A stretch of DNA of 64,000 bases from a candidate division TA06 bacterium SM23_40 (GTDB taxonomy: Bacteria > LJUI01 > SM1-40). Positions 16,967 through 39,188 of this stretch are shown piece after piece. The notes beneath the pieces are model-generated. The model had not been told where the DNA came from. It saw only the letters and a list, made by a program, of their open reading frames with translations, and made no database searches. The translations under genes were made by a program, and so were the position numbers. Each line of letters begins with the position of its first letter. Positions within the stretch are counted from its first letter, which is position 1. The DNA lies in contig LJUI01000004.1 in the NCBI GenBank assembly GCA_001303705.1, positions 14,495 to 78,494 on the forward strand. The letters run 5' to 3'.

Positions 16967-17926
16967 ATGGTTCAAGTACTGGTCACAGGAGCCGAGGGAT
17001 TCGTCGGCGGACATCTTGTACCTCTGCTGCTAGCGCGTGAGAGGCGAGTGAGCGGCACCGCGCTGGACGAGAGGGATGTGGAGAGGATCGAGCGTTTCGA
17101 TGGGGCTCGGGGCGTGGCCTGCGATATCACCGAGAGGGAGGGGATCGCCGGCCTCGTAGAGCGCCTCCTTCCCCGGGAGATCTACCATCTGGCGGCGCAG
17201 AGTTCGTCGGCGTTCTCTTTCTCCGACCCGTATGGCACGATTGCGGACAATGTGATCGGATGTCTGAACGTGCTCGATGCCGCCAGGCAGGCTGCCCAGA
17301 CTGCGCGCGTCCTTATCGTCAGTACGGGAGAGATCTACGGCGTCGGGTCAGAGAACCCGCTTACTGAAGAGGCGCCTGTCGGCCCGATGACTCCTTACGC
17401 GGCGTCGAAGGTGTCGATGGAGCTCGTTGCTCGTCAGTACTGGAAAAGCCTGGGGCTTCCGGTGGTGATCGTCCGCCCCTTTAACCATACAGGGCCTGGT
17501 CAAAGTCCTCGGTTCGCCCTCTCGAGCTTTGCCAAACAGGTCGCCGAGGCGGAACTAGGGCTGAGCTCACCACTGATAGAGGTAGGGAATCTGGACGTAC
17601 GTCGTGACTTCCTCGATGTGAGAGATGTCGTGCGGGGTTACTTGCTCGCTCTCACCGAGGGTGCTCCTGGCGAGATCTACAACATCTCCTCTGGCATTGC
17701 GTCATCGCTTCGCGATGTTCTCGATCTGCTCCTGGAATCGGCGAATGTCTCGATCAAGGTCGAGATCGGCAACGATCGTCTGAGAAAGGTCGACATACCC
17801 GTGCTGTGCGGCGACAGCTCGAAATTCAGAGCTCGCACGGGTTGGAGTCCTCGCTACGAACTCAGGCAGACGCTGCACGATCTTCTGGACTACTGGCGTC
17901 ATGAGCTTCAAGATTCTGGTCGTTAA
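16967..17926 (+). CDS. Second NAD-dependent sugar epimerase/dehydratase, SDR family (Rmd/GDP-4-keto-6-deoxyhexose reductase-like)
   Basis: VLVTGAEGFVGGHLVPLL. YxxxK PYAASKVSMEL. Paralogous to the preceding gene. Confidence 0.8.
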   Translation: MVQVLVTGAEGFVGGHLVPLLLARERRVSGTALDERDVERIERFDGARGVACDITEREGIAGLVERLLPREIYHLAAQSSSAFSFSDPYGTIADNVIGCLNVLDAARQAAQTARVLIVSTGEIYGVGSENPLTEEAPVGPMTPYAASKVSMELVARQYWKSLGLPVVIVRPFNHTGPGQSPRFALSSFAKQVAEAELGLSSPLIEVGNLDVRRDFLDVRDVVRGYLLALTEGAPGEIYNISSGIASSLRDVLDLLLESANVSIKVEIGNDRLRKVDIPVLCGDSSKFRARTGWSPRYELRQTLHDLLDYWRHELQDSGR

Positions 17927-19064
17927 CTGGCAGGACAGAACGAACCCGCTGGCAGGTGGGGCGGAAATACATCTGCACGAGATCTTCGGGCGCCTGGCGA
18001 TGCAGGGTGATGAGGTCTGGCTTCTCTGTTCCTCCTATCCCGGCGCAGCTCCGGTCGAGTATGTCGACGGTATTCGTGTGGTGAGAAGGGGAGGACGGTT
18101 CACGTTCAATATCAGCGCCTTTCTCGCATATTATCGGGAGTTGGCGCACGAACAATTCGACGTTGTCGTCGAAGATATGAACAAGATTCCGTTCTACACT
18201 CCTCTCTATGTGCATGGTCCGGTCCTCGCGATGGTACCGCATCTATTCGGAACGACAGTCTTCCAGGAGGCGATCGTTCCTCTGGCGGTCTATGTCTATC
18301 TCTGGGAGCTGCCGATTCCGCTGATCTATCGCCGCGTGAGGTTTGAGGTCATTTCCGAGAGCACCAAGGAGGATCTCGTTGCCCGCGGGATTCGGTCCGA
18401 TCTGATCCATGTCGTTCACTGCGGGATCGATCGCATGGTTTATCATCCCGGGGGTTCAAGAGACGAAGATCCGCTTATCGTCTATCTGGGCAGGTTCAAG
18501 AAGTACAAGCGCGTAGACCTCCTGCTCAGCGCCATGGTGAAGGTGAAGGAGCGAGTGCCACGCGTGAAGCTTCTCCTGGTCGGCGGTGGAGACCATCTGG
18601 GTGCGCTGAGGGAGCTTGTGGAGCGGCTCGGACTCTCTGACACTGCGTCGTTCACCGGGCACGTGGACGAACAGGAAAAGGTGGGCCATCTCCGTCGCGC
18701 ACACCTCGTGGTCAACACCTCTCCGAAGGAGGGCTGGGGGCTTACCGGCGTCGAGGCGAATGCCTGCGGTACACCTGTGGTTGCATCCGACTCGCCCGGT
18801 CTGCGCGACTCGATCGCCGATGGCAAGAGCGGCCTCCTCGTGCCTCACGGCGACGTGGGTGCGCTCGTCGAGGCCATAGTCCGCATGCTCACAGATGAAG
18901 AACTCAACTGGAGACTGTCGCGGGGAGCGGTCGATTGGGCAGCCAGGTTCAGCTGGGATGCTGCAGCGGAGAGGACCAGACAGCTAATCGAAGAGGTCGT
19001 AGGTAGCGAGAGAGGTTCGGGTCCTCGGGGCCCGGCCGGCAAAACGCCAGGAGCGAGTGTGTGA
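17901..19064 (+). CDS. Glycosyltransferase family 4 (GT-B, retaining)
   Basis: GT4 fold signatures. C-terminal EGWGLTGVEANACGTPVVASDSPGLRD (E-x7-E-like motif). Confidence 0.8.
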   Translation: MSFKILVVNWQDRTNPLAGGAEIHLHEIFGRLAMQGDEVWLLCSSYPGAAPVEYVDGIRVVRRGGRFTFNISAFLAYYRELAHEQFDVVVEDMNKIPFYTPLYVHGPVLAMVPHLFGTTVFQEAIVPLAVYVYLWELPIPLIYRRVRFEVISESTKEDLVARGIRSDLIHVVHCGIDRMVYHPGGSRDEDPLIVYLGRFKKYKRVDLLLSAMVKVKERVPRVKLLLVGGGDHLGALRELVERLGLSDTASFTGHVDEQEKVGHLRRAHLVVNTSPKEGWGLTGVEANACGTPVVASDSPGLRDSIADGKSGLLVPHGDVGALVEAIVRMLTDEELNWRLSRGAVDWAARFSWDAAAERTRQLIEEVVGSERGSGPRGPAGKTPGASV

Positions 19065-20038
19065 GAAAATGGCTCTGGCTCTTCGTCAGGCTCATCGTCA
19101 GTGCGGGTCTGCTCGCCTTTCTGCTGAGCCGTATTGATCTCGCTCGGCTCGTCGAGCTCGTGCGCGGGGCCGATGTCCGCTTTCTTGCCTTACCGTTTAT
19201 ATCGCTCGTTGGGTTCATCATCATCGCTGCTTTTCGCTGGCGGATACTCCTCCGCTCCCTGGAGAAGCGTGTCGTGATGAGGCGGCTCGTCGCGTACTAT
19301 TTTGTCGGCCTCTTCTTCAACAATTTCTTCCCCACCACAGTGGGAGGAGACGCACTGCGGGGGTACTATCTCTCTCGCGAGGGTTCGGCCAAATCCGAGG
19401 CGTTCGCGTCAGTCTTTGTGGAGCGGCTTTCCGGCATTGCCGCGCTGCTGATTCTTGCTCTGGTCGCCTCGGCTCTGATCTATGCGAGCATGGGAGATAG
19501 AACGATCATCCTCTGGGTTTCCCTGGGGTTCGCCATCGCTGGAACGCTGACGCTCCTTCTCTTCAGCGTGTCTGTGGGGGCGGCTATTGAGCGCGGTCTA
19601 GCCCGGGTCACTATTTTCGGATCGGGAGCCAAGCTGACGAGGTTTCTCCGGGCATTGCGGTTCTATCGCGGCCAGAAGAGGGCGGTCGTTGCTGCAGTCG
19701 TCATCTCCTGCATCATTCAGTCGATCCACATCTACGCCAACTATCTCGTGGGGAGGGCCCTGGGTCTGGAGGTCCCACCACAGTACTACTTCCTATTCGT
19801 GCCCATCATCACCGTAGCGGCCATGTTGCCGCTAACGATAAATGGGGTGGGTATCAGAGAAAACGCGTTTGTCTTGCTCTTCGGCCGCGTCGGGATGGGG
19901 GCGGCCGAGGCGACGTCAGTGTCGTTGCTCATATTCGGAACGTGGGTCGTCGTGAGCCTCATTGGCGGCGTGATCTTCCTTTTCGGCCCAGCGACCTGGA
20001 GGGTTGCTCCCGAACCCGGGACACCCCAGCGGCCGTAG
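19061..20038 (+). CDS. Flippase-like polytopic membrane protein of the lysyl-PG-synthase-TM / UPF0104 family (paralog 1). GTGA overlap with the upstream GT4.
   Basis: About 8 predicted TM helices. Motif FFNNFFPTTVGGDALRGYYL typical of the LPG_synthase_TM (MprF flippase domain-like) family. Confidence 0.6.
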   Translation: MRKWLWLFVRLIVSAGLLAFLLSRIDLARLVELVRGADVRFLALPFISLVGFIIIAAFRWRILLRSLEKRVVMRRLVAYYFVGLFFNNFFPTTVGGDALRGYYLSREGSAKSEAFASVFVERLSGIAALLILALVASALIYASMGDRTIILWVSLGFAIAGTLTLLLFSVSVGAAIERGLARVTIFGSGAKLTRFLRALRFYRGQKRAVVAAVVISCIIQSIHIYANYLVGRALGLEVPPQYYFLFVPIITVAAMLPLTINGVGIRENAFVLLFGRVGMGAAEATSVSLLIFGTWVVVSLIGGVIFLFGPATWRVAPEPGTPQRP

Positions 20039-20059
20039 GAGCGATCGGAGAGGGCAGTC

Positions 20060-21016
20060 GTGTCCGCAAGGGGAAATCGGGCGATGGAACAGAATGTCGA
20101 TCGGGTATCGATAATAGTGCCGGCGCTCAATGAAGAGGAGAATGTGCCGGTCGTGGTACAGCGGATCTCCGAGATGATCGAGGAGAGTGGCCTCGACTGT
20201 GAGGCGATTTTGGTCGATGACGGCAGCACCGATGGCACGTATCAGGCTGGATTGCAGGCGCGGGAGCGTTATCCCTTCCTCAAGGTGGTCCGTCATCGGC
20301 GGAACCGCGGTAAGACTGCCGCCCTTCTCACCGGGGCGGAGGAGGGTACAGGCGGGGTGCTCGTGCTGCTTGACGCCGATATGCAGTTCGATCCGGCAGA
20401 GGTGCCGAAGCTCGTAGCAGGGATCGAACAGGGCGCGGATCTCGTCTCCGGCCGGAAGGTGGGCAAGTACGAGAAACGTTTCGTATCGTGGATATACAAT
20501 TTCCTATGTCGACGGCTGTTTCACGTGACGGTGCACGATCTGAACGCGGTCAAGGCATTCAGGCGAGAGGTTCTTGAGGCCCTCGATCTCAGAAAGGACT
20601 GGCATCGGTACCTGGTGGTACTCGCTGCAGAGAAAGGATTCACGATCGCCGAGGAGGAGGTGCAGCTCTATCCTCGTCTGCACGGCGAGACCAAGTACGG
20701 CGGCGTCGGGCGCATCGCAGTCGGTGTGCTCGATCTGATTGCAGTCAAGTTTCAGCTCTCCTTTATGCGCAAGCCGATGCTTCTGTTCGGCGGAACAGGA
20801 GCGTTCCTGCTCTTCTGCGGGATGATCGTCGGCTTCATCTCGCTGTACCTCCGTTTTGTGATGGAGATGGGCTTCCGGCCTCTGTTGTATCTCGTTATTT
20901 TGCTCGTCACCTCCGGGCTCCTGCTCTTCGCGCTGGGATTTCTGGCTGAGGCGATCGCGAACGTCCAGGAGAGGCTGGAGGGAGTTGAGCGGGCGGCGAA
21001 GAAGAGACACCTCTAG
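20060..21016 (+). CDS. GT2 glycosyltransferase, polyprenol-phosphate sugar synthase-like (DPM1/GtrB/ArnC-like) with a C-terminal TM anchor
   Basis: VSIIVPALNEEENV...ILVDDGSTDGT...DADMQ (DxD). Two C-terminal TM helices as in GtrB/ArnC. Alternative start ATG 20084. Confidence 0.8.
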   Translation: MSARGNRAMEQNVDRVSIIVPALNEEENVPVVVQRISEMIEESGLDCEAILVDDGSTDGTYQAGLQARERYPFLKVVRHRRNRGKTAALLTGAEEGTGGVLVLLDADMQFDPAEVPKLVAGIEQGADLVSGRKVGKYEKRFVSWIYNFLCRRLFHVTVHDLNAVKAFRREVLEALDLRKDWHRYLVVLAAEKGFTIAEEEVQLYPRLHGETKYGGVGRIAVGVLDLIAVKFQLSFMRKPMLLFGGTGAFLLFCGMIVGFISLYLRFVMEMGFRPLLYLVILLVTSGLLLFALGFLAEAIANVQERLEGVERAAKKRHL

Positions 21017-21226
21017 CCGCCCGGAGCCGCCAGAGACAGTAATCGTGCTCGGAGCGGGCTCCCGCCCCACAGTCTTCCCTAGAGTATGAATCCCCCTTCA
21101 CAGGCGGACCGATGCCCGATTCACCAGGGCTGCCCCCTGGCGATGCCCCGATCGACCCGTGGTACGGCCGAGGTCTGGGGAGGAATGAACGACGCCCTAT
21201 CTACCCCAGCGGAATGGGTTTTTCCC

Positions 21227-21255
21227 TTGACTTCCCTAGAGATATGGCATAGGTT
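21227..21255 (+). promoter_or_regulatory. Promoter-like motif TTGACT-N17-TAGGTT (copy 2) ~150 nt upstream of ugd
   Basis: Identical hexamers and spacer length to 15818-15846, followed by GGCAAG. Confidence 0.35.
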
Positions 21256-21406
21256 GAGGGGCAAGTGTGAGGGTTCAGCGGTCGGTCTCCGTCCGGATTC
21301 GGGGTGGCCCACCCAGAACGGGTGTGTCGAAGGGGGGGTGGTCTATTCAGAGTCCTCTCCGCATCCTGGTCGAGACGACCGTACCGGCTATTTGACGAGG
21401 TGATCC

Positions 21407-22705
21407 ATGAAGGTCGGAATCATCGGTTCAGGATATGTCGGATTGGTGACCGGCGCGTGTTTCGCTGAAATGGGAAACGATGTCATCTGCGTCGACAATG
21501 ACGAGGCGAAGATCGACATGCTGAAGCGCGGCGAGATGCCGATCTATGAGCCTGGACTCGGCGATCTGGTAGCCCGCAACACAGCAGACGGCAGGCTCGC
21601 GTTCACAACGTCGATAGAGGAGGCAGTTGACGCGTGCATGGTGCTCTTCATCGCCGTTGGCACACCATCAAAGGATGATGGCGAGGCAGATCTTTCTGCC
21701 GTCGAGGCAGTGTCCCGCAAGATCGCGGAGTGCATGAAGGAGTACCGTCTGGTCGTTGAGAAGAGTACGGTGCCGGTGCAGACCGGCGCCTGGATCAGGC
21801 GAACGCTCGAACGGTACAACCCGGACGGGGCTGAGTTCGACGTGGCGTCGAACCCGGAGTTCCTCCGAGAAGGATCGGCGATCGGAGACTTCATGCATCC
21901 GGACCGTGTTGTCATCGGGGTAGAATCGGAACAGGCTCGTACGATATTGCTCGATCTCTATGCGCCCCTCGAGTGTCTCATCGTGGTCACAGATATCGAG
22001 AGCGCCGAGATGATCAAGCACGCGAGTAATTCGTTTCTTGCCATGAAAATATCATTCGTGAATGCAGTGGCTAATATCTGTGAGAGGGCAGGGGCAGATG
22101 TCACTCAGGTTGCCGCTGGGATGGGATATGACCATCGCATCGGCAAGGAATTTCTGCGCGCCGGTGTTGGCTTCGGCGGTATCTGTTTTCCCAAGGACCT
22201 CCAGGCGTTTCGCAAGATAGCTGAGAGTTTCGGATATGATTTCGGGCTGCTCAAAGAGGTTGAGAAGATCAACGAAGAGATGAAGCGGCTGGCGGTGGAG
22301 AAGGTGCGAGAGGCGCTCTGGGTATTGAAGGGAAAGACGGTGGGGGTGCTGTGGCTGTCGTTCAAGCCGAATACCGATGACATGAGGCGGGCGCCTGCCG
22401 TCGACATCATCAATTATCTCCTGGAGGAGGAGGCCACTGTACGGGTGTATGATCCCGTGGCGATGGATAGGGCGAAGACGATACTCAGTGATGTTACGTT
22501 CTGCAAAGATCCGTATGAGGTCTGCGCCGGCAGCGACGCGCTTCTCATTGTGACGGAGTGGGAGGAGTTTGCGAACCTCGATTACGCTCACGTGGCGAAG
22601 CTCATGCTTACCCCGATCCTGATAGACGGCAGGAATATGCTCGACCCCGACAACATGCGGGAACTCGGCTTCGTCTATCGGGGGATTGGCCGTGCGACTC
22701 GATGA
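21407..22705 (+). CDS. ugd: UDP-glucose 6-dehydrogenase
   Basis: MKVGIIGSGYVGLVTGACFAEMGNDVICVD at the N-terminus. Catalytic Cys region GFGGICFPKD. Length 432 aa. Confidence 0.9.
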   Translation: MKVGIIGSGYVGLVTGACFAEMGNDVICVDNDEAKIDMLKRGEMPIYEPGLGDLVARNTADGRLAFTTSIEEAVDACMVLFIAVGTPSKDDGEADLSAVEAVSRKIAECMKEYRLVVEKSTVPVQTGAWIRRTLERYNPDGAEFDVASNPEFLREGSAIGDFMHPDRVVIGVESEQARTILLDLYAPLECLIVVTDIESAEMIKHASNSFLAMKISFVNAVANICERAGADVTQVAAGMGYDHRIGKEFLRAGVGFGGICFPKDLQAFRKIAESFGYDFGLLKEVEKINEEMKRLAVEKVREALWVLKGKTVGVLWLSFKPNTDDMRRAPAVDIINYLLEEEATVRVYDPVAMDRAKTILSDVTFCKDPYEVCAGSDALLIVTEWEEFANLDYAHVAKLMLTPILIDGRNMLDPDNMRELGFVYRGIGRATR

Positions 22706-22780
22706 CTGCCTCACAGGCTCTCTTGCCGCGCGAGGCGACATCATGGGGCTCAATGAACGTGAGGAGGTATTGGAGATCGG

Positions 22781-24655
22781 ATGGGCCGGCGCAGGAAACG
22801 TGCAGCAGAAGAATCGAAGACGAAAGGCAACAGTAGATCCAGGAAGAAGCAGCGCCCTGCGGTCGGGGCCGCCCCTCAGCGAAGGGCTACCGATGCGGGA
22901 GGGAAGGTGCAGGGTGATACTGCTTCCGAGACGGCTGCTGCCAGAGTCGCTCCGGAAGAAGGGCATCGGGACGAACGCGAAGAGAGAGCGGTCTCTCTCG
23001 ATGAGAGGGCCGAATCTGGGTACGAGAGCAGGCTGTGGCTCACGTCGGCGGCCAGGAAGGCACCTCTCATCACACTCGTGGTGATCCTGCTCCTTGCAGG
23101 CCTCTTCGGCGCTCTCCTCTTCGATCCGAAGCCGAGTGTCGGCGGCGACAATGCCCATTATCTTCTCCTGGCGAAAGCCCTGGCTACCGGTAGAGGCTAT
23201 CGATCGATCGAATCGCCGGGAGACCCACCTCATACCCATTTCCCATTCGGCTACCCCATGCTGTTGACCCCGCTCGTTCGTCTCATTCCGGGGAGCATTC
23301 TCCCGCCGAAGATGTTGTCCCTGGTGCTGTTCGTAGGGTCGCTTCTTCTCCTGTACCCACTCCTGACGCCGCGGATCGGATATGGCCTCACTCTGAGCGT
23401 ACTTGCCTTGCTCGCCATCAGCCCCATTATGCTCGAATTCTCGCACTGGGCCCTGTCGGAAATCCCCTTTCTCTTCTTCACGATTCTGTCGATGATACTC
23501 TTCAGCGCTGCAGAGAGGGGGGGGAGAAGGTCGTGGTGGTGGTTTGCCTTGGGATCACTGTGTCTGGTGTGGACATTCTACATCAGAACAGTCGGCATTG
23601 CTCTGGTGATCGCGGTGCTAGTCCGTCTCGCGTGGAGACGGTCGTTCAAGAGGGCTGCGCTGCTTCTGATCATAGTGGTCTTGCTGGCAGCACCCTGGAT
23701 GATCCGCAACGCGATACTGCCATCGGATGTAGGTGATCCGGCGACCGCGAGCTACATCTCTCAGGCGATGATGGTGAGCGCGTTCGATCCGGAGGCGGGA
23801 ACACTTACGGCACGTGAGTACCTGGTGCGGGTGTTCCGCATCGTCAGCGCCTACTGCAATCGTGTACTGCCCAAAGTCATCCTGCCGCCTCTCTGGGCGA
23901 GCGAATCGCTCTTTGAGCTCCCTCAGATCGCAAAAGCATTCGTATGGCCCCTCATCCTGGGCCTCACACTGTTGGGACTGTTCCTGCAGCTGAGGAGAAG
24001 GCCCGCTCTGTTCGACATCTATGTCATTGCTTACCTCCTGGTTCTCTGGGGGTGGGCGAACAAGAATATAGCCGCGGGGCCACGGTATCTGTTGCCCGTG
24101 CTCCCGTTCCTCTTTGTCTACTTTCTCGAGGGATGTGACCGGGTACTCAAATGGTCGGTTCCTCAGCGAAGCACACTGCTTCCCCTCGTCCTCGTTTGTG
24201 TTCTTCTAGTAACAGGTACTTGGGTTCTTCTTCCTCCCGTGTCATCGAACCTTGCCGACCTATCGGCGTATATAGCCGGTGATCCCTTTGCCGGATATTC
24301 CGACTCATGGGCCAATTTCTTCTCAGTAGCGCTCTTTGCCTACGACAAGATACCTCGTGATGCCATCATCATGACGCGCAAGCCCGCACTCTTCTATCTC
24401 TACTCGCATCGGAAATCGGTGATCTATCCCTATACTCGGGATGAAGAGAAACTATATGAGGCGTTAGCCGAAAACAACGTTGACTTCGTCCTGGTGGATG
24501 CGTTCCGCTGGACGAAGACGACACAGAGGTACCTCATCCCTGCCATACTGGCAAGGGTCGATCGGTTCAGAGTCATCTGCGTTACGATCCCGCCGAAGAC
24601 CTATCTGCTCCAGGTACTTGGTGATCCACGAGAGTGGTCAGGAGGAGAAGAGTGA
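22781..24655 (+). CDS. GT-C fold membrane glycosyltransferase (PMT/ArnT/GT39-83-like) with an unusual ~100-aa Lys/Arg-rich N-terminal extension
   Basis: Multi-TM N-terminal half, GDNAHYLLLAKALATGRGY loop motif, large C-terminal soluble domain. Basic N-terminus MGRRRKRAAEESKTKGNSRSRKKQRP. Confidence 0.6.
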   Translation: MGRRRKRAAEESKTKGNSRSRKKQRPAVGAAPQRRATDAGGKVQGDTASETAAARVAPEEGHRDEREERAVSLDERAESGYESRLWLTSAARKAPLITLVVILLLAGLFGALLFDPKPSVGGDNAHYLLLAKALATGRGYRSIESPGDPPHTHFPFGYPMLLTPLVRLIPGSILPPKMLSLVLFVGSLLLLYPLLTPRIGYGLTLSVLALLAISPIMLEFSHWALSEIPFLFFTILSMILFSAAERGGRRSWWWFALGSLCLVWTFYIRTVGIALVIAVLVRLAWRRSFKRAALLLIIVVLLAAPWMIRNAILPSDVGDPATASYISQAMMVSAFDPEAGTLTAREYLVRVFRIVSAYCNRVLPKVILPPLWASESLFELPQIAKAFVWPLILGLTLLGLFLQLRRRPALFDIYVIAYLLVLWGWANKNIAAGPRYLLPVLPFLFVYFLEGCDRVLKWSVPQRSTLLPLVLVCVLLVTGTWVLLPPVSSNLADLSAYIAGDPFAGYSDSWANFFSVALFAYDKIPRDAIIMTRKPALFYLYSHRKSVIYPYTRDEEKLYEALAENNVDFVLVDAFRWTKTTQRYLIPAILARVDRFRVICVTIPPKTYLLQVLGDPREWSGGEE

Positions 24656-25548
24656 GAGAGTCCACTGGGACTAGTGGAGAGAGAAAGCCACTCGTGAGCG
24701 TCGTCATCCCGGCGTTCAACGAGGAAGAAGCCATCGCCGATGAACTGAGAGAGATTACGACGGTGATGGACCGATCGGAATATCAGTATGAATTGATCGT
24801 GATCGATGATGGTTCGACAGACCGCACCGGCGAGATCGCGAAGGCCTCCGGCGCTACGGTGATCCGGCATCCGGTTAATAAGGGCAGCGGTGCATCTCGC
24901 CGTACGGGGATTCATAACTCGCAGGGAGAGATTATCGTGATGGCCGATGCTGACGGCACGTACCCCTGCTATCAGATTCCCGAACTTCTCAAGTGGCTCC
25001 CGGAGTACGACCAGGTGGTGGGGGCGAGACACACGGAAGAGGGCACGTTGAAGCTATTGCGAATGCCGACCAAGTGGTTCATTCGCCACCTGGCCTGCTT
25101 TTTGAGCGGGAAAGAGATACCCGACCTCAATTCGGGGTTGCGAGCTTTCAAGCGTGATGTGATGCTCAAGTTCGTCGACTTCATACCGGACGGATTCTCC
25201 TGCGTTACGACTATGACCCTTTCTTTCTTGACAAACGGGTATACCATCAAGTACGTGCCGATCGAATACTTTCGACGGGTGGGAAAGTCGAAGTTCCATC
25301 CCGTTCGAGATACCTACAATTATATGCTGCTCGTAGTGCGCATGATCATGTACTACAATCCGCTTAAAATCTTTGTTCCCGTCGGGATGGCGATCTTGGT
25401 TGCCGGTCTCGCCAAGGCAGTGCGCGATATGATTGTCTACTACTTCAAGGTGACAGGGTCTGCGATCGTGGCGATCAGTGTTGGCGTCCAGATCATCGTG
25501 GTCGGCCTTCTGGCCGATCTGATTGTGAAGCGGGTCGGGAAGACGTAA
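24652..25548 (+). CDS. GT2 polyprenol-phosphate glycosyltransferase-like (GtrB/ArnC/CsbB-like) with C-terminal TM helices. GTG start with RBS AGGAGG, GTGA overlap.
   Basis: VSVVIPAFNEEEAI...LIVIDDGSTDRT...DADGT (DxD). Two C-terminal TM helices. Confidence 0.8.
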   Translation: MRESTGTSGERKPLVSVVIPAFNEEEAIADELREITTVMDRSEYQYELIVIDDGSTDRTGEIAKASGATVIRHPVNKGSGASRRTGIHNSQGEIIVMADADGTYPCYQIPELLKWLPEYDQVVGARHTEEGTLKLLRMPTKWFIRHLACFLSGKEIPDLNSGLRAFKRDVMLKFVDFIPDGFSCVTTMTLSFLTNGYTIKYVPIEYFRRVGKSKFHPVRDTYNYMLLVVRMIMYYNPLKIFVPVGMAILVAGLAKAVRDMIVYYFKVTGSAIVAISVGVQIIVVGLLADLIVKRVGKT

Positions 25549-25599
25549 TTGCTCCGAGCGGAAACCGGATTTCGAGCGGCTCTGTCTACCTGAGAGCGG

Positions 25600-26625
25600 A
25601 TGACAACCGGAGAGCTTGTGGTGGAGGCCGATATAGTACCAACGAAGGGGTATCGCGGGCTTCGGCATCGTCTAGTGATCTTCGCCTCGGCCCTGGTTGG
25701 TGTCGGCCTGATTGTTGTGCTGTTGTCCTTCATCGATCCGAGAACGATCATAATGCTCTGCTCGCAGCTCGACCCACGCTGGGGGCTCGCGGGCGCGCTA
25801 TGCTACGGTGCGACCTATCTCTTCCGTGCTGCTCGTTTTCAGGTTCTGCTTGCGGAACGTCGCACCGCGATCGGGCGTATGTATTCGGTAGCCTGCGTCC
25901 ACGGGATGCTCAATCACCTCTTGCCGATGCGGTTCGGGGAGGTCTCGTATCTCTATCTCGTGAGGAGAGCCTTCGGCGTGAGTCTAGGAGAGGCGGCTGT
26001 TTCCCTCCTGGTGGCACGGCTGTTCGATTACATGGTCGTATCGACCATCTTCATGATCGCCGCCGTGCGGGTTCTCCCCGAACTTCCCGGTGGCGTGGGC
26101 TGGTACCTGGTAGGTGCCGCAGCACTCGCGGCTCTCGCAGTGCTGGGGCTGATCCTGGCCGTGCGCTTGAGCCACCGGCTACAGACGTGGGGAGCGAGAA
26201 TCAGGCAGGAGAGGCGTCGTGGCGTTCTGAGCTGGGTCGGTCAGAAGCTCGACGAGGTCGCGAGGGCATTTGACTCCGCCTCGCGTGCCCGGGTCTACAT
26301 GCGGGTGCTAGGACTGTCAGTACTCGTCTGGGGCGGCGTCTTTGGCACGTTCTACTGCCTGTTGCGTGGGTTGGGATTTGGTGTGAGCCCGTGGCTCGCG
26401 ATCGTCGGAGGAACCTTTGCCGTCCTTACAAGCGTGCTTCCGTTGAGTGGTGTCGGGAGCTTCGGCACACTGGAGGCCGGCTGGACCGCTGGTTTTCTGT
26501 TGATCGGATTTGAGAGAGAGCAGGCGATCGCGAGCGGGTTTGCGGTGCATCTCCTCTTGTTCGCAATGGTTATTCTTCTCGGCCTTGTTGGTGCGGCTGC
26601 GATTGCCGTGGGTCGAAAACGATGA
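25600..26625 (+). CDS. Flippase-like membrane protein, LPG-synthase-TM/UPF0104 family (paralog 2)
   Basis: Polytopic membrane protein with the family-typical N-terminal IDP...G..Y..R..R segment. Confidence 0.6.
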   Translation: MTTGELVVEADIVPTKGYRGLRHRLVIFASALVGVGLIVVLLSFIDPRTIIMLCSQLDPRWGLAGALCYGATYLFRAARFQVLLAERRTAIGRMYSVACVHGMLNHLLPMRFGEVSYLYLVRRAFGVSLGEAAVSLLVARLFDYMVVSTIFMIAAVRVLPELPGGVGWYLVGAAALAALAVLGLILAVRLSHRLQTWGARIRQERRRGVLSWVGQKLDEVARAFDSASRARVYMRVLGLSVLVWGGVFGTFYCLLRGLGFGVSPWLAIVGGTFAVLTSVLPLSGVGSFGTLEAGWTAGFLLIGFEREQAIASGFAVHLLLFAMVILLGLVGAAAIAVGRKR

Positions 26626-27827
26626 AGGTGTTGTTTATCGTCACCGCTTTTCAGCGCCATGAAAAAGACGTCATCACTCCCTGGCTTCTCGAGACGATCA
26701 AGAGTCTCGGCGATCTCGGTATCGAGGTCACGGTGTTTGCTCCCTCATACCGTGGGCTCGCCGATCACACCATTAAAGGTATCCCTGTCAAGCGGTTCCG
26801 CTACTTCTTCCGTCGATGGGAGAACCTGACCCACGAAGAGACGACGCCCGACCGCCTGAAACGCGGTCTCTTTTACAAGGGACTGGTGGCATTCTATGTC
26901 CTGGGCGGTATGATTGGCATTATGCGACTCTGCGCCCGCGAACGGTACGACATTATTCATGTCCACTGGCCCTTCCCTCATGCGCTCTTCGGCTATCTGG
27001 GGCGTTGGATGTGCGGAGGACGACTTGTCTGCACGTTCTACGGGGTAGAGCTCCAGTGGGTGCTCAACAAGATGCCGGCGTTTCGCCCATTTCTCAAATG
27101 GGCGGCACGGGTTTCGGATGAGGTTGTCGCTATCTCGAGCTACACGGCAGCGATGCTCCGCAACGTGGAAGATGTTCCGATTCGCGTCATTCCGTACGGC
27201 ATCTCAGTCCGGGAGTTATCACCGCCTGTCAGACGGTCTTCCGGACCGGCGACGATCCTGTTTGTGGGGAGACTGGTAGAGCGGAAGGGTGTGGCCTTTC
27301 TGATAGATGCGTTCCAGAACCTGTGCAGGTCGTCCGATGTTCGGTTGGTGATAGTGGGAGATGGGCCGGAGAGACGGGCTCTTGAACAGAGAGCTCGTTC
27401 GAGGGGCATAGAAGGGGAGGTCCGGTTTGTCGGCCAGGTGGAAGCGGATCGACTCAAAGAGTGGTACAGGGCCTCTGATATCTTTGTGCTCCCCGCAGTC
27501 TTCGATTCGAAGGGAGATACCGAAGGGTTGGGAGTGGTGCTTCTTGAGGCGTTGAGCCACGGGAAGGCGGTAATCGCCAGTCGCGTCGGCGGTATCGTAG
27601 ACATAGTAGAAGACGGCAAGACGGGTCTTCTCGTCGAGGAGAAGGACGCGACGGCACTTGCGCGTGCGATTGAGCGCCTTCTCTCCGATCATGAGCTGTA
27701 TCGCCATATCGTCGAGGAGGGACAGAAGAGAGTCCGAGAGAGATTTCTCATCGGAGCTGTTGCCGGGCGGCTGGCGGAGACCTACGGGGCGCGAACGACA
27801 GCCCGTACTCCGGAATCGACGGATTAG
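26622..27827 (+). CDS. Glycosyltransferase family 4 (ATGA overlap with the upstream gene)
   Basis: GT-B C-terminal domain with EGLGVVLLEALSHGKAVIASRVGGI. Confidence 0.8.
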   Translation: MKVLFIVTAFQRHEKDVITPWLLETIKSLGDLGIEVTVFAPSYRGLADHTIKGIPVKRFRYFFRRWENLTHEETTPDRLKRGLFYKGLVAFYVLGGMIGIMRLCARERYDIIHVHWPFPHALFGYLGRWMCGGRLVCTFYGVELQWVLNKMPAFRPFLKWAARVSDEVVAISSYTAAMLRNVEDVPIRVIPYGISVRELSPPVRRSSGPATILFVGRLVERKGVAFLIDAFQNLCRSSDVRLVIVGDGPERRALEQRARSRGIEGEVRFVGQVEADRLKEWYRASDIFVLPAVFDSKGDTEGLGVVLLEALSHGKAVIASRVGGIVDIVEDGKTGLLVEEKDATALARAIERLLSDHELYRHIVEEGQKRVRERFLIGAVAGRLAETYGARTTARTPESTD

Positions 27828-27831
27828 AATA

Positions 27832-28584
27832 ATGCGTGACTACTATCGTCAGGTTTCCGCATCAACGAGGTACCGCGATTCGCGCCGAAAGAAGGCGAAA
27901 CTGATAGCGGACGTAATCGGGGAATTACTTGACGACGCGCAGATGATTATCGATCTGGGGTCGGGAACAGGCCTCATCAAGCAGTACCTCAGTCAGAAGA
28001 TCAAGAAGCCGATTCTGGGCATAGAGGTGGACCCGGATTTCATAGTGCAGAAGGAAGATACCGCTATTGGAACGGTGACCGAACTTCCCGTGAAGGACAA
28101 TTCCGTAGATCTTGTCCTCTGCAACCATCTCTATGAGCACGTGCAGGACCGGTCGGCGCTGTTCTCAGAGATGCGGAGGGTACTCGCCCCGTCGGGAAGG
28201 ATCTATTTGACGGTCGGGAACAGGTTCCAGCTCATGGAGCCACACTACCGCCTGCCGTTTCTCAGTTGGTGTCCTGTATGGCTTGCGAACACCTATCTGC
28301 GGGTAACCAGACGGGGGAGTGACTACCGTGATATACACTTTCCCACGTATGGCGAGCTGGTTCGTGCCGTGCGTGCTCAGTGTCTTGAGGCCGACGATAT
28401 TACGTTCGATGTGCTCTTCCGTCGCAGGCGTCTGATGAGCACACCGCTGAGGAGAGTCCTGTTGTGGGTGCTGCTCCGCCTTCCTGACAGGCTGCGGCGC
28501 GTGCTCCTGAGATGGCTGACACCTCAGTGGTTCTTGCTGCTCCATCATCAGCAGGCTGGCCGAACCATGTGGCACGGATCGTGA
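27832..28584 (+). CDS. Class I SAM-dependent methyltransferase. The ORF track starts at 27658, overlapping the GT4; ATG 27832 is more likely.
   Basis: Motif I IIDLGSGTG. Post-I acidic residue. DLVLCNHLYEHV. Confidence 0.65.
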   Translation: MRDYYRQVSASTRYRDSRRKKAKLIADVIGELLDDAQMIIDLGSGTGLIKQYLSQKIKKPILGIEVDPDFIVQKEDTAIGTVTELPVKDNSVDLVLCNHLYEHVQDRSALFSEMRRVLAPSGRIYLTVGNRFQLMEPHYRLPFLSWCPVWLANTYLRVTRRGSDYRDIHFPTYGELVRAVRAQCLEADDITFDVLFRRRRLMSTPLRRVLLWVLLRLPDRLRRVLLRWLTPQWFLLLHHQQAGRTMWHGS

Positions 28585-28586
28585 GG

Positions 28587-29522
28587 ATGTTCTCTACCGG
28601 ATCATCTGCGCGCTTGCGCGAAAGAGCTGAACGTCGTGTGTCGTGGAGGAGGATCGCCCAGGTACTCCTCGTTTCAGCTGCGGTTATCTATATCGTTCAG
28701 CGCATCATCGCGGACGCGTCGAAGCTGCTGGAATTCGACTGGCGACTGAAGCTGGGATCTCTGGCAGTCTCCTATCTGCTGCTCTTTGCCGCGTTCTCAG
28801 GCTATCCCGTTGTCTGGTGGCTACTATTGAGGGGGATGGGAGAGAGGCTCCCGCTCGGTAAGGCTTTTCGGATCTGGTATGTGTCCAATCTCGGGAGATA
28901 CGTACCCGGTAAGATCTGGCAGATAGTGGGCCGTGTGGAGTTGGCGAAGGATCTGGGTGTGGCTCGATCTACCAGTGCGGCCAGTGTCGTCTACGAGACA
29001 GGATTGATCATTACGAGCGGCATCATTGTGTTTGGAGTTGCCACGGTAGCCTCCAGAGATGCTACACCCTTCTCGTCGGTCTGGCCGATCTTTCTCGTAT
29101 TGCCCTTTGGCATAGTCCTGGCCCATCCGCGAGTCCTCTCCGCCGTGACGAATGTAGTTTTGAGGAAGGTGCGCAAGCCGGAGATAACGTTAGACGTGGG
29201 CCTGCGATGGGCGGCCTCTGTCTTGGCGCTGTACGGGATATTGTGGATCATCCAGGGAGCGGGCTTTTTCTTTCTTGTCCGGTCGTTGACGGCGGTGTCT
29301 TTTCGCTGGTTGCCACAGCTCGTGGGCGTATTTGCTGCAGCATGGATTGCCGGGTTTCTCAGTTTCATCACGCCCGGTGGTCTGGGGGTGAGGGAAGGTG
29401 TCATGACTTTTCTTCTCAGCCTGTACCTACCGCCATCGATCAGTGCTGTCGTTTCCATACTGTCGCGCATCTGGATTACTGTAGGCGAGGTTGTCTGCGC
29501 TCTTGTGTCGTCGAAAGCGTAG
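28587..29522 (+). CDS. Flippase-like membrane protein, LPG-synthase-TM/UPF0104 family (paralog 3)
   Basis: Polytopic. GKIWQIVGRVELAKDLGV and other family-typical segments. ATG 28587 lies just after the MTase stop. Confidence 0.6.
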   Translation: MFSTGSSARLRERAERRVSWRRIAQVLLVSAAVIYIVQRIIADASKLLEFDWRLKLGSLAVSYLLLFAAFSGYPVVWWLLLRGMGERLPLGKAFRIWYVSNLGRYVPGKIWQIVGRVELAKDLGVARSTSAASVVYETGLIITSGIIVFGVATVASRDATPFSSVWPIFLVLPFGIVLAHPRVLSAVTNVVLRKVRKPEITLDVGLRWAASVLALYGILWIIQGAGFFFLVRSLTAVSFRWLPQLVGVFAAAWIAGFLSFITPGGLGVREGVMTFLLSLYLPPSISAVVSILSRIWITVGEVVCALVSSKA

Positions 29523-29641: not shown

Positions 29642-32062
29642 GTGAGCAAACGGAAGAAAAAGAATGAGCCGCAACGGCGAGCGAGCGGCGCTGGTCGCTC
29701 GGTTGCCTCCGGGGAGCAAGCGACGGATCGGTTGGTCGTCCCTCTGCTCCTTGCGGGCATGGTTGTTGCGATCGTCATTCTATTCCGGGACTTCATCTTC
29801 TCAGATCGCATGCTTCACGGTTCCGATGTCCTCACCTCGGCATACTATTTTCGCGTCTTCGGGAGCGAATATCTTCTCGAGCACCTCCGCTGGCCATCGT
29901 GGAATCCGTACATTTTTGGAGGGCTCCCCTTCGTTGACGCGATGCATAGCGACATATTCTATCCGACGTGGATTCTGCGGCTCCTGGTCCCGGTAGCGAG
30001 GGCGAACGGATACGTTTTCTGTATTCACATATTCCTCTCTGGTGTCGCGACCTTCTGCTTTGTTCGTTCGCTTGGAGTGGGGCGCACAGGTGCAGCCATC
30101 TCCGCGTTGGCGTACATGTTCTCGGCGGGGATAGTCTCGTTCATATTCGAGGGTCACGACGGGAGGCTCATTGTGACCTCAATGTTGCCGGTGGCGCTCC
30201 TATTCCTCCACCGTGGAATGGCCGGCAACGGGGCTTGGAACTACATCGTGGCAGGAGGGGGGGTTGGGCTCGCACTCCTGTCTCCCCAGGTGCAGATGTC
30301 GTACTATCTCGGGATAGCAGTCTCCCTCTTCTTCCTGGTGGAATTGTGGTATCGATGGCAGCGATCGCGTGATCCGAGAAAGGCGGTATCTGCGATTCTG
30401 CTTTTCGTTGCCATGGTGGGGGTCGGGTTGAGCCTCGCGGCGGTTCAGTTCCTCCCGGCGTATTCGTATCTCGAGTACTCTCCCCGGGGTGGTGGAGGGA
30501 GGGGGTACGAGTTCGCCACGTCCTGGTCGATGCCTCCGGAAGAGACGATCAATCTGGTGGCGCCTTCCTTCTCCGGGCTGCTCGAGAGCTATTGGGGGCG
30601 CAATTACTTCAAGCACCACTCGGAATATCTCGGTATCATCACGCTCGTGTTGGCCGGCACAGGAGTGGCACTCAGCCGGCGGAGGCCGTACGCCCGATTC
30701 TTTATCGGTCTGGCGGTCTTCAGTCTGATTATGGCCTGGGGTGGACACACTCCGTTGTATAGAATCGCATACTATATCATACCGAGGATCAAGCAGTTCC
30801 GCGCTCCTTCGCTGATCTTCTACCTTTTCTCGTTCTCGGTGGCTGTGCTCGCGGGATTCGGCCTTGACTCTTTGCACAGTGAAACCGGTGCGAGGGCGAA
30901 GCGGCTCATACGGGGGCTGGCAATCGTTCTCGGTGTCCTGGCAGTCTGCCTGATCGTCTGTGTGGTCGCACGCGAAGGTGTGACCCGATCGATTGCAGAC
31001 GGGGTTATTCCCTATCTCAGGGCTCACTATGCGCCGGAGATGGTTCAGATGAAGGTACGCAGCCTGGGGGCCAACTATTCCGCATTCCTTCTCTCCTTCT
31101 TCAGATCGCTGGTCGTGGCCGGTATCTCGATCGTGATCATCTGGATGCTTGTTGAGAGAAAGATACTTCCCGCGACCGGTCTGTATCTGCTGGGTCCGTT
31201 ACTTCTTTTCGATCTGCTCCTGGTGGATGCGAAGTTCGTCCGGACGGTGCAGCCAGCTGACGAGTTCTTTGCCGAGGACGAAGTGGTGAGATATCTAAAG
31301 CAGGATGACAGCGTATTCAGAGTATTCCCGTACGACCACCGACCTAACGATGACTACCTGATGCTGTTTGGCCTCCAGAGTGTAGGTGGGCACCATGGGA
31401 ATCAGCTCCAACGGTATCAGCGGTTCATCGGGGGTGCAGAGACAGTGATGTTCTACGCCCCCAATCTTCAGTACCGCAACTTCCTCGATCTGCTGAACGT
31501 CAAGTACATCGTAGCATCGAAACGGGTGCCCGCGTCGGGCCTTCCGGTGGCCCACTCTGGTGCTGCATTCAACATCCTCACAAACGAGACTGTGCTCCCA
31601 CGGGTCTTTATCGTGCCGGACTACCGTGTGGTGACAGATGATGATGCGTTGGATCTTCTGAAGCGGTCCGACTTCGATCCCAGTGCTACCGTGCTGCTGA
31701 GCGAGGATCCTGGCTTCACTCCTGTATCGAGTGATACGTCTGTGGGCGAGGCGCTGCTCATCTCGTATGAGCCCGATCGGGTGGTGGTCGAGGCTACCAC
31801 TTCGAGCACGGCTCTGCTTGTCCTGAGCGACAATTACTACCCGATGTGGAGAGCGGTGATCGATGGTCGGCCGACGAAGATCTACAGGGCCTATTACACT
31901 CTCCGGGCCGTGGTGGTGGAGCCGGGCTCGCACGCGGTAGAATTCGTGTACGATTCGATCTATCTCAAGGTCGGTTTCGTATTGAGTCTGGTTGCATCGC
32001 TGATGGTGCTGGCGGCAGGTTGCGTGGTCATTGTACAGTGGCAAAGGAGGCGCAGAGCGTGA
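29642..32062 (+). CDS. YfhO-family large polytopic membrane glycosyltransferase (GT-C-like). Start GTG 29642 with RBS GGAGGG; the ORF track starts at 29597.
   Basis: About 800 aa with 13+ TM helices and a C-terminal extracytoplasmic domain. N-terminal WPSWNPYIFGGLPFVDAMHSDIFYP resembles the YfhO family. Confidence 0.6.
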   Translation: MSKRKKKNEPQRRASGAGRSVASGEQATDRLVVPLLLAGMVVAIVILFRDFIFSDRMLHGSDVLTSAYYFRVFGSEYLLEHLRWPSWNPYIFGGLPFVDAMHSDIFYPTWILRLLVPVARANGYVFCIHIFLSGVATFCFVRSLGVGRTGAAISALAYMFSAGIVSFIFEGHDGRLIVTSMLPVALLFLHRGMAGNGAWNYIVAGGGVGLALLSPQVQMSYYLGIAVSLFFLVELWYRWQRSRDPRKAVSAILLFVAMVGVGLSLAAVQFLPAYSYLEYSPRGGGGRGYEFATSWSMPPEETINLVAPSFSGLLESYWGRNYFKHHSEYLGIITLVLAGTGVALSRRRPYARFFIGLAVFSLIMAWGGHTPLYRIAYYIIPRIKQFRAPSLIFYLFSFSVAVLAGFGLDSLHSETGARAKRLIRGLAIVLGVLAVCLIVCVVAREGVTRSIADGVIPYLRAHYAPEMVQMKVRSLGANYSAFLLSFFRSLVVAGISIVIIWMLVERKILPATGLYLLGPLLLFDLLLVDAKFVRTVQPADEFFAEDEVVRYLKQDDSVFRVFPYDHRPNDDYLMLFGLQSVGGHHGNQLQRYQRFIGGAETVMFYAPNLQYRNFLDLLNVKYIVASKRVPASGLPVAHSGAAFNILTNETVLPRVFIVPDYRVVTDDDALDLLKRSDFDPSATVLLSEDPGFTPVSSDTSVGEALLISYEPDRVVVEATTSSTALLVLSDNYYPMWRAVIDGRPTKIYRAYYTLRAVVVEPGSHAVEFVYDSIYLKVGFVLSLVASLMVLAAGCVVIVQWQRRRRA

Positions 32063-33557: not shown

Positions 33558-33574
33558 ACAGAGGCCCTGATTCG

Positions 33575-36240: not shown

Positions 36241-36256
36241 TGCCGGAGGAACCTGA

Positions 36257-38498: not shown

Positions 38499-38539
38499 AG
38501 GATGCCGGCCCTGAGCCCGTCAGACGTTCGGAGCTTCTG

Positions 38540-39142: not shown

Positions 39143-39188
39143 CACCGTCGACAAATTCCATCGATAAGCTGCATCACATGGAGGGAGC

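Follow-up and report, generated by a model that had tools for sequence, protein, structure and literature searches.

Of the steps in extracytoplasmic glycosylation, the least understood is the passage of polyprenol-phosphate-linked sugars through the membrane. The proteins proposed for this job, which share a slot beside a GT2- and a GT-C-type glycosyltransferase (GT), are GtrA/GtcA, the SMR-like ArnE/ArnF, the Wzx-like GacK, and the MATE protein ORF14 (PMC8035078, PMC11127046). None of the GtrA, ArnE/F, Wzx-like, or MATE candidates has direct biochemical proof (PMC11127046), and the same two papers on bacterial three-component systems name flippases of the GtrA, Wzx, SMR, and MATE types, do not list the Pfam family PF03706 among these classes, and are silent on MprF. 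A flippase role for PF03706 was nevertheless predicted in 2015 by Makarova, Galperin, and Koonin, who found archaeal members near PMT/STT3-like and AglD-like enzymes and proposed all members of COG0392 as flippases (PMC5898192); the names of COG0392 ("Predicted membrane flippase AglD2/YbhN") and of the NCBIfam model ("flippase-like domain") reflect that prediction. Here we analyze three members of this family, Flp1, Flp2, and Flp3, encoded in one locus within a 64,000-nucleotide (nt) stretch (the window) of contig LJUI01000004.1 from candidate division TA06 bacterium SM23_40. We consider it fairly probable that each Flp is the translocase component of its own GT2/GT-C three-component extracytoplasmic glycosylation module, in the manner of GtrABV, ArnC/EF/T, and CsbB/GtcA/YfhO.

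Family members have been described in several other settings. The name PplT comes from Hauser et al., who also catalogued fusions of the domain to GT-A and GT-B domains; Escherichia coli YbhN (PplT), like the Flps a stand-alone PF03706 protein, is proposed there as a lipid translocator (bioRxiv 10.1101/2022.03.11.483950). Unlike the Flps, YbhN is encoded in the clsB (cardiolipin synthase) operon, with links to phospholipid enzymes and without a glycosyltransferase context. GpgF (Pseudomonas aeruginosa gpgSDF; PMC12713373) and HexF (C. difficile hexSDF; PMC10128005) are likewise stand-alone PF03706/COG0392 proteins; each shares its operon with a glycosyltransferase and has been proposed, not demonstrated, to flip glycolipids. 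The TA06 cluster resembles these operons in its coupling of GT4 and Flp genes. However, gpgSDF and hexSDF make glycerolipid-based glycolipids and include a deacetylase, whereas no deacetylase was found in the TA06 cluster, its GT4 enzymes are not GpgS equivalogs, and GT2 and GT-C partners dominate. In archaea, arCOG00899 and the C-terminal domain of Haloferax volcanii AglD belong to the same family and are fused or adjacent to a Dol-P-hexose-forming GT2, near PMT/STT3-like enzymes, and "many archaea have multiple paralogs" (PMC5898192). The TA06 locus differs in being bacterial, in having GT2 genes that are separate rather than fused, and in carrying three subfamilies side by side in one array. 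In comparison with GtrA and SMR proteins (3-4 transmembrane [TM] segments, ~120-140 amino acids [aa]), the Flps have 8 TM segments, ~320 aa, and an unrelated fold.

An earlier note on this DNA, made from the sequence alone, had described three polytopic proteins resembling the MprF flippase domain, and family searches bear this description out. The three open reading frames (ORFs; 19061-20038, 25600-26625, and 28587-29522, all on the + strand) exceed the gathering cutoff of Pfam PF03706 (LPG_synthase_TM; 33.4 bits), with scores of 170.2 bits for Flp1 (profile positions 2-302 of 302), 125.7 for Flp2, and 47.5 for Flp3. The cutoff of NCBIfam TIGR00374 (43.2 bits) is passed by Flp1 (98.5) and Flp2 (49.8) and not by Flp3 (23.4). 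A hydropathy scan found at least six to seven hydrophobic segments in each protein. AlphaFold2 models of Flp1 and Flp3 were confident (pLDDT 88.6 and 86.6), and Foldseek searches of the PDB with these models returned MprF chains alone at probability 1.0 (P. aeruginosa 9j8s, 9j8q, and 9goe; R. tropici 7duw; R. etli 7f47). TMq to MprF was 0.53-0.62 for Flp1 and 0.58-0.64 for Flp3 over ~300-338 columns, with all other matches at 0.31 or below, and in both models the match spans the first TM subdomain of MprF. For Flp2, an MprF-type fold is supported by a full-length hhalign alignment to the Flp1 family profile (305 columns, E = 1.8e-23). MprF itself is ~800-870 aa, carries an aminoacyl-phosphatidylglycerol synthase domain and a second TM subdomain, and serves tRNA-dependent lipid aminoacylation, whereas the genomic partners of the Flps are glycosyltransferases. 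No synthase domain (GNAT-like, DUF2156) was found in the Flps (311-341 aa, with PF03706 the sole Pfam match) or their neighboring genes, and the Flps have no second TM subdomain. Flp1, Flp2, and Flp3 each correspond to the first TM subdomain of MprF as a protein in its own right (PF03706/COG0392/"PplT").

The conserved residues of the Flps are concentrated at distinctive places in this fold. Subfamily alignments gave as invariant P91, G95, G96, D97, R122, P257, G264, R266, and E267 in Flp1; R79, P109, G113, D143, P281, G289, T290, and E292 in Flp2; and Y105, P107, G108, P263, G265, G267, R269, E270, R294, and E301 in Flp3. In the Flp1 and Flp3 models, the invariant Pro/Gly and charged residues map to the turns of two predicted helical hairpins (P91-G95-G96-D97 and P257-G264-R266-E267 in Flp1; P107-G108-(K109) and P263-G265-G267-R269-E270 in Flp3, with R294 and E301 in the last helix), and helices break at ~90-93 and 256-264 in Flp1 and at 106-108 and 259-267 in Flp3. 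The first TM subdomain (TMD1) of MprF (RtMprF, 7DUW; PaMprF, 9GOE and 9J8S) likewise contains a pair of helical hairpins in which Pro/Gly and charged residues are conserved. The Flp hairpin residues may correspond in position to the TM7a-7b loop, Glu280, and Arg304 of RtMprF (PMC8131360), and Flp3 E270 (after the second hairpin) and R294 would resemble the RtMprF E280-R304 pair between TM7b and TM8. This mapping is positional analogy only, because the subfamily profiles (A1 and A3) did not reach MprF among PDB sequences. The earlier note had named better matches to unrelated transporters and a lack of conserved intramembrane charges as grounds for doubt; the fold search returned only MprF, and charged residues sit at the hairpin tips. 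The shared segments that it listed fared less well: the quoted motif FFNNFFPTTVGGDALRGYYL occurs in Flp1 only, with equivalents MLNHLLPMRFGEVSYLYL in Flp2 and SNLGRYVPGKIWQIVGRV in Flp3, and the N-terminal "IDP" is found in Flp2 only.

Homology among the three proteins is evident from profile-profile comparison (hhalign, E = 1.8e-23 for Flp1-Flp2, 8.2e-18 for Flp1-Flp3, and 2.6e-4 for Flp2-Flp3). BLASTP aligned Flp1 with Flp2 over 125 aa at 28% identity (E = 1e-4) and gave nothing significant for Flp3 against either. When hidden Markov models (HMMs) were built from the homologues of each Flp, every member scored at least 253 bits on its own family HMM and at most 82 bits on the other two. Each Flp is 36-39% identical to orthologues in other phyla (e.g., NC10, Latescibacterota, and WOR-3) and closer to these than to its two locus mates. 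A recent local duplication was rejected on the weak BLASTP similarity and the gap between own- and cross-family scores. By these comparisons, the Flps represent three old subfamilies gathered together, so that "paralogous" holds at the superfamily level only and the supposed triplication gives way to ancient subfamilies, each with its own syntenic module. Because each subfamily brings such a module, the locus is an assembly of distinct modules.

The Flp genes lie in a single unbroken array (~15.9-36.2 kb of the window) with all genes on the + strand and gaps of at most 75 nt. By synteny, the array divides into module A, SDR-SDR-GT4a-Flp1-GT2a(ArnC-like)-orf-Ugd, where orf is an uncalled 105-aa ORF; module B, GTC1-GT2b(AglJ-like)-Flp2; and module C, GT4b-methyltransferase-Flp3-YfhO-like GT-C-GT2c(DPMS-like)-GT2d-radical SAM-WecA. 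The genes, in order, are as follows.

15955..16908, + strand: SDR-family nucleotide-sugar dehydratase/epimerase 1 (module A sugar supply); Pfam GDP_Man_Dehyd E 6.6e-80, Epimerase E 4.7e-53
16967..17926, + strand: SDR-family nucleotide-sugar dehydratase/epimerase 2 (module A sugar supply); Pfam GDP_Man_Dehyd E 4.3e-65
17901..19064, + strand: GT4a, GT4 (GT-B) glycosyltransferase, translationally coupled to Flp1; Pfam Glycos_transf_1 E 4.3e-39
19061..20038, + strand: Flp1, stand-alone MprF-flippase-domain protein, subfamily 1, 325 aa; PF03706 E 9.2e-50
20084..21016, + strand: GT2a, ArnC-like polyprenol-phosphate-sugar synthase candidate; Pfam Glycos_transf_2 E 4.8e-28
21407..22705, + strand: UDP-glucose 6-dehydrogenase (Ugd; hexuronate/pentose precursor supply); Pfam UDPG_MGDP_dh_N, central, and C domains
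22781..24655, + strand: GTC1, 624-aa polytopic membrane protein, probable GT-C (module B); ~9 hydrophobic segments, Pfam PMT E 1.7e-4
24652..25548, + strand: GT2b, AglJ/ArnC-like polyprenol-phosphate-sugar synthase candidate; Pfam Glycos_transf_2 E 6.8e-27
25600..26625, + strand: Flp2, stand-alone MprF-flippase-domain protein, subfamily 2, 341 aa; PF03706 E 3.3e-36
26622..27827, + strand: GT4b, GT4 (GT-B) glycosyltransferase, coupled to Flp2; Pfam Glycos_transf_1 E 4.7e-47
27832..28584, + strand: SAM-dependent methyltransferase (module C); Pfam Methyltransf_11 E 2.5e-17, start from gene call
28587..29522, + strand: Flp3, stand-alone MprF-flippase-domain protein, subfamily 3, 311 aa; PF03706 E 2.2e-12
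29642..32062, + strand: YfhO-like GT-C glycosyltransferase (module C); Pfam YfhO 38 bits versus cutoff of 28.5, ~10 hydrophobic segments
32059..32775, + strand: GT2c, soluble Dol-P-Man-synthase-like GT2, translationally coupled to the YfhO-like gene; PDB DPMS 5mlz E 1.2e-33
32712..33557, + strand: GT2d, second GT2, without TM segment, start uncertain; Pfam Glycos_transf_2 E 9.7e-15
33551..35023, + strand: B12-binding radical SAM enzyme, HpnJ-like (putative sugar modification); Pfam Radical_SAM and B12-binding
35038..36240, + strand: WecA/MraY-family polyprenol-phosphate HexNAc-1-phosphate transferase, end of the conserved block; Pfam Glycos_transf_4 E 2.4e-37, NCBIfam WecA E 1.8e-36

The two overlaps reported earlier, GTGA between the GT4a stop and the Flp1 start (19061-19064) and ATGA between the Flp2 stop and the GT4b start (26622-26625), are real, and further GTGA overlaps join GTC1 to GT2b (24652) and the YfhO-like gene to GT2c (32059). 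Gaps of 21-74 nt, or one gene, separate the GT2 genes from the Flp genes. The Flp3 start at 28587 (a longer ORF begins at 28512) matches independent gene calls on public contigs and falls 2 nt past the methyltransferase stop; the start of SDR 1 follows the L001 gene call, the longest ORF beginning at 15847. In a scan of 15.6-35.5 kb, promoter-like sites occurred at chance level and the terminator-like matches that were checked never fell between genes. The 105-aa ORF (21086-21403) was rejected as a GtrA-like candidate, having no TM segment, no Pfam match, and no counterpart in public-contig gene calls. An ORF of 464 aa on the - strand (22052-23446), antisense to Ugd and GTC1, has an Arg/Pro/Ser-rich translation, is also absent from those calls, and is most likely a spurious high-GC ORF. 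The gene order of the window recurs on several metagenome contigs, and the Flp1 sequence is identical to a protein in assembly GCA_001304185.1.

The enzymes encoded beside the Flps include candidates for making and using polyprenol-phosphate sugars. Against PDB sequences, GT2a matched ArnC best (9hwj, E = 1.3e-24), followed by Dol-P-Man synthase (DPMS; 5mlz) and GtrB (5ekp); GT2b matched ArnC (E = 4.4e-17), DPMS, and GtrB; and residues 26-246 of GT2c matched DPMS 5mlz. In NCBIfam, the best matches were ArnC for GT2a (E = 2.2e-28) and AglJ for GT2b (E = 1.4e-41), both below cutoff, and none of the three GT2 enzymes reached an equivalog cutoff. GT2a and GT2b end in a TM hairpin (hydrophobic segments at 249-296 and 245-294), and the hydropathy scan found no TM segment in GT2c or GT2d. 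GT2a, GT2b, and GT2c are therefore best described as candidate polyprenol-phosphate-sugar synthases. This agrees with the earlier note in placing three such enzymes near the Flps, although the enzymes whose genes overlap Flp genes (17901-19064 and 26622-27827) are GT4 (GT-B) proteins. The YfhO-like protein (806-821 aa) passes the Pfam YfhO cutoff. Homologues of GTC1 share an invariant GGDNA motif right behind a hydrophobic segment predicted at residues 96-114, and a profile of these homologues found no solved relative among PDB sequences; GTC1 is a probable GT-C enzyme on sequence grounds. Ugd matches TuaD (E = 3.1e-168) and AglM (E = 5.5e-118) in NCBIfam, and the module A SDRs reach no NCBIfam equivalog. 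With Ugd, SDRs, and an ArnC-like GT2, module A may follow an Arn-like logic.

The radical SAM enzyme suggests an unusual sugar modification. Its best match is the hopanoid ring-contraction enzyme HpnJ (E = 3.9e-52; 177.7 bits versus a cutoff of 577.6), and similar genes adjoin Flp3-type genes in four other loci (L012, L111, L131, and L144). A hopanoid HpnI/J/K/L cluster, in which HpnL is a PF03706 protein, was considered and rejected: no Flp matched HpnL, and the score of the radical SAM enzyme falls well short of the HpnJ cutoff.

To determine how broadly these arrangements are conserved, we compared 80 Flp1-type loci from GTDB genomes, 80 Flp3-type loci from metagenomes, and five Flp2-type contexts outside TA06. 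Because an alignment of 35 sequences proved too diverse for scanning genomes, a narrower one was used; ORFs in the fetched loci were labeled by phmmer against the window proteins and by hydropathy, and loci with at least 4 kb on both sides were counted as full-flank loci. Across 157 related loci, the recurrent neighbors of Flp genes were GT2 and GT-C genes, a pattern that holds in several phyla. The lipid-linked-sugar context proposed in the earlier note is thus upheld, each subfamily being strongly linked to GT2 and GT-C genes; its remark that such a role is not established for the family is true of experiment, but the idea itself is prior art, present in the 2015 prediction, the COG0392 and NCBIfam names, PplT, HexF, and GpgF. 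Nine sampled contigs showed the patterns PMT-GT2-Flp-PAP2 (NC10), Flp-GT2-Flp, Flp-PMT, STT3 ... GT2-GT4-Flp-GT2, and GT2-Flp-PMT_2 with overlaps of 4 nt, and one sampled contig carried a 568-aa membrane protein-GT2-Flp together with GT4-Flp-GT4-PMT_2. Overlapping GT2-Flp-PMT_2 triads were found in L006 and L014.

For Flp1-type genes, a GT2 gene lay within 4 kb in 58/80 loci and in 37/44 full-flank loci, and GT2 density was 1.30 per 10 kb inside 4 kb versus 0.10 per 10 kb outside. A large polytopic neighbor was present in 24 of the 44 full-flank loci, and a GT4 gene lay within 4 kb in five. By Pfam, 34 of 37 large neighbors were GT-C enzymes (27 of the TMEM260-like O-mannosyltransferase type and seven PMT_2), the other three being unrelated transporters. 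GT2a-type genes adjoin Flp1-type genes in many genomes, and SDR and Ugd genes trail them in WOR-3 and Stahlbacteria. Recurrent forms were GT2a-Flp1-Ugd-SDR (WOR-3 and Stahlbacteria; a block present in 12 loci), PMT_2-GT2a-Flp1 (NC10, Thermodesulfobacteriota, and Patescibacteria), and GT2d-GT-C-Flp1 ... GT2c (Calditrichota). The Flp3-type genes occupy a conserved block, (GT2a)-GT4b-Flp3-(methyltransferase)-YfhO-GT2c-GT2d-WecA (e.g., L095, L114, L123, L138, L152, L156, and L173). Within it, the 4-nt overlap of YfhO and GT2c recurs in L114 and L123, GT2d follows GT2c in L095, L114, L123, L138, L156, and L173, and WecA follows GT2d in L114, L123, L138, and L156. Among 35 large neighbors of Flp3-type genes, 20 matched YfhO and 11 PMT_2, with matches to PTPS_related (3) and DUF2079 (1) as well. 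In many metagenome loci, the gene directly preceding an Flp3-type gene is a GT4b homologue, and methyltransferase genes adjoin Flp3- and Flp2-type genes (L010, L114, L152, and L171). Of the five Flp2-type contexts, three show GT2-Flp2 adjacency (L009, L011, and L175) and four have GT-C-like neighbors (uncharacterized ~565-aa proteins, DUF2142, PTPS_related, and PMT_2). A gene fusion was also found: in an Ardenticatenales (Chloroflexota) metagenome-assembled genome (L073:7902-11579; CAZDTE010000029.1), a 1,225-aa protein joins PF03706 (residues 36-318) to PMT_2 (residues 495-635), directly downstream of a GT2 and a GT4 gene.

Two groups of loci have features of their own. In Calditrichota (L024, L031, L034-L038, L043, L047, L059-L063, L067-L072, L076, L079-L080, L084, L086, and L091), Flp1-type genes directly follow a ~880-aa TMEM260-like GT-C with C-terminal TPR repeats, and a DPMS-like GT2 lies 2-4 kb downstream, which suggests a bacterial protein O-mannosylation-like system. 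Zixibacteria SM23_81 (L029; LJUY01000019.1, 2139-10783) has a multi-Flp array, Flp-GTC1 homologue-Flp-GT2a-GT4a-Wzx-GT4b, in which PF03706 genes and Wzx stand side by side in one cluster.

In the mechanism that we favor, (i) the GT2 enzyme, working at the cytoplasmic face, would glycosylate polyprenol phosphate with a nucleotide sugar as donor; (ii) the PF03706 protein would pass the polyprenol-phosphate-sugar through the membrane, probably by energy-independent scrambling via or alongside a polar cavity lined by the hairpins; and (iii) the GT-C enzyme would hand the sugar to an acceptor outside the membrane. The PF03706 proteins would hold the slot of the GtrA/GtcA, ArnE/F, Wzx-like, or MATE proteins in characterized systems. 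Cargo lipid, transport direction, specificity, and acceptor are here as we infer them, and a substrate-specific cargo would be in tension with the scrambling of many lipids in vitro by full-length PaMprF (PMC11980842).

The remaining membrane proteins of the window offer no other recognized occupant for this slot. ORFs with at least three hydrophobic segments are Yip1, FtsX, the three Flps, GTC1, the YfhO-like protein, WecA, Lnt, a PMT_2 protein, and one 188-aa ORF. Among them, no match to the GtrA, Wzx/MOP, SMR, or EamA families was found, and no MATE, MurJ-like, or ABC glycan exporter. The 188-aa ORF (45531-46097; ~6 hydrophobic segments, no Pfam match) is the sole polytopic ORF of the window without a family. 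Around the 157 related Flp genes, 75 small hydrophobic ORFs lie within 5 kb, and not one of these matched GtrA, SMR, or EamA. The lack of other flippase types nearby fits, weakly, with the Flps filling the flippase slot.

Several points weigh against this assignment. Flippase genes can be unlinked, as is gtcA in Listeria, and the absence of a nearby flippase is for this reason weak evidence. We know of no family member that has been shown to move a polyprenol-linked sugar. Flp1 and Flp2 are translationally coupled to GT4 rather than GT2 enzymes, and a GT4b homologue is the commonest upstream neighbor of Flp3-type genes. GTC1 falls just under the Pfam PMT cutoff (21.7 versus 22.7 bits). The context counts are not phylogenetically independent, with Calditrichota giving most of the TMEM260-like cases. 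In a cluster with WecA and without Wzx or an ABC exporter, a polyprenol-diphosphate-oligosaccharide could be the cargo. The stand-alone relatives HexF and GpgF adjoin enzymes making glycerolipid-based glycolipids and are dispensable for lipid synthesis (PMC10128005, PMC12713373). Finally, the scrambling groove proposed for MprF lies between TMD1 and TMD2, and the Flps have only the TMD1 equivalent (PMC11980842).

Some of these points are what would be expected if the Flps were glycolipid flippases of the GpgF/HexF type, with the GT4 enzymes glycosylating an inner-leaflet glycerolipid (diacylglycerol, phosphatidylglycerol, or similar) and the PF03706 proteins moving the product to the outer leaflet. 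The GTGA and ATGA overlaps of GT4a-Flp1 and Flp2-GT4b speak for this possibility, as do the GT4-Flp pairs in L009, L012, L013, L019, L021, and many Flp3-type loci (28/77 with a GT4 within 4 kb), the precedents of gpgSDF (GT4 GpgS plus COG0392 GpgF; PMC12713373) and hexSDF (PMC10128005), and reported GT-B-PF03706 fusions in Actinobacteria, Nitrospirae, and Chloroflexi (bioRxiv 10.1101/2022.03.11.483950). We nevertheless judge it unlikely. GT4a and GT4b score only ~50 bits on the GpgS model NF053787 (cutoff, 480), and with no deacetylase found in the cluster, membership in a GpgSDF/HexSDF-like operon was rejected. Flp1-type genes have GT4 neighbors far less often than GT2 neighbors (5/44 versus 37/44 full-flank loci), and the Chloroflexota fusion joins the domain to a GT-C, whose donors are polyprenol-phosphate sugars. 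In other loci the homologues of GT4b accompany Flp3-type genes, so the Flp2-GT4b overlap resembles a boundary where two modules meet.

Alternatively, one or more Flps, Flp3 especially, could substitute for Wzx and flip a polyprenol-diphosphate-linked oligosaccharide begun by WecA and extended by GT4 and GT2d, with the GT-C as polymerase or ligase. The conserved Flp3 block (GT4b-Flp3-YfhO-GT2c-GT2d-WecA) does close with WecA, the polytopic ORFs of the window include no Wzx/MOP, MurJ-like, or ABC glycan exporter (although an exporter could sit beyond the 64 kb), and the in vitro cargoes of full-length PaMprF extend to very large head groups (PMC11980842). However, YfhO, PMT_2, and TMEM260-like GT-C enzymes characteristically use polyprenol-monophosphate sugars, translational coupling joins the DPMS-like GT2c to the YfhO-like gene, WecA is missing from the neighborhood of many Flp1- and Flp2-type loci, and the presence of Wzx beside Flp genes in the Zixibacteria array argues that Flp is no general Wzx replacement; on this evidence, such a role seems quite improbable. 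That the Flps are not dedicated to a cargo at all, being general phospholipid scramblases (PplT/YbhN-like housekeeping) or nontransporting scaffolds that stabilize GT2 and GT-C, would accord with the tie of YbhN/PplT to phospholipid-synthesis enzymes and the clsB operon (bioRxiv 10.1101/2022.03.11.483950), with the promiscuous, energy-independent scrambling by full-length PaMprF (PMC11980842), and with the dispensability of HexF and GpgF, but is very unlikely given that three subfamilies are tightly, often overlappingly, linked to GT2 and GT-C genes across phyla, one member being fused to a GT-C, and given the strict conservation of charged hairpin residues, which speaks against a purely passive scaffold.

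Genes flanking the array may bear on its regulation and product. Directly upstream lie a 1,200-aa Ser/Thr kinase gene with AAA_16 and TPR domains (12128-15730) and, preceding it, a GAF-sigma54-activator gene (10118-12079, so annotated on L001); both are possible regulators of the cluster. Downstream lie genes for a sugar N-acetyltransferase of the NeuD/PglB type (38171-39142) and an aminotransferase resembling ArnB/PseC (39189-40331; ArnB model score 342.5 bits, below the cutoff of 631), which together with the WecA-family gene (35038-40331 for the three) point to an amino- or acetamido-sugar. Farther downstream, a third GT-C (PMT_2, E = 2.1e-10; 60666-62221) appears to be split over two overlapping ORFs in different frames (60666-61664 and 60863-62221), which may reflect a frameshift or assembly error. 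Upstream of this GT-C are an apolipoprotein N-acyltransferase gene (57286-58839), a GNAT/FemAB-like gene, and an amidohydrolase gene.

The TA06 locus offers a clean bacterial illustration, of unusual density, of a prediction already made, and is mainly useful as a source of testable constructs. Because the domain has been resolved by cryo-EM and its scrambling can already be assayed in vitro (PMC8131360, PMC11980842), PF03706 candidates are unusually tractable, and the TA06 locus, the GT2-Flp-GT-C triads, and the Flp-PMT_2 fusion provide concrete constructs to test the 2015 prediction and cargo differences among subfamilies. For annotation, our results argue against the label "lysylphosphatidylglycerol synthase" for such genes. 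More tentatively, and at somewhat less than even chances, stand-alone PF03706 proteins may form a widespread fifth class of polyprenol-phosphate-sugar translocases that, in FCB-group phyla, Methylomirabilota (NC10), Nitrospirota, Chloroflexota, and Archaea, stands in for GtrA, SMR, Wzx, and MATE proteins in GT-C-dependent extracytoplasmic glycosylation, with subfamilies that co-evolved with, and were sometimes fused to, particular GT-C partners. If so, the three side-by-side modules of TA06 would be a natural experiment in cargo specificity.

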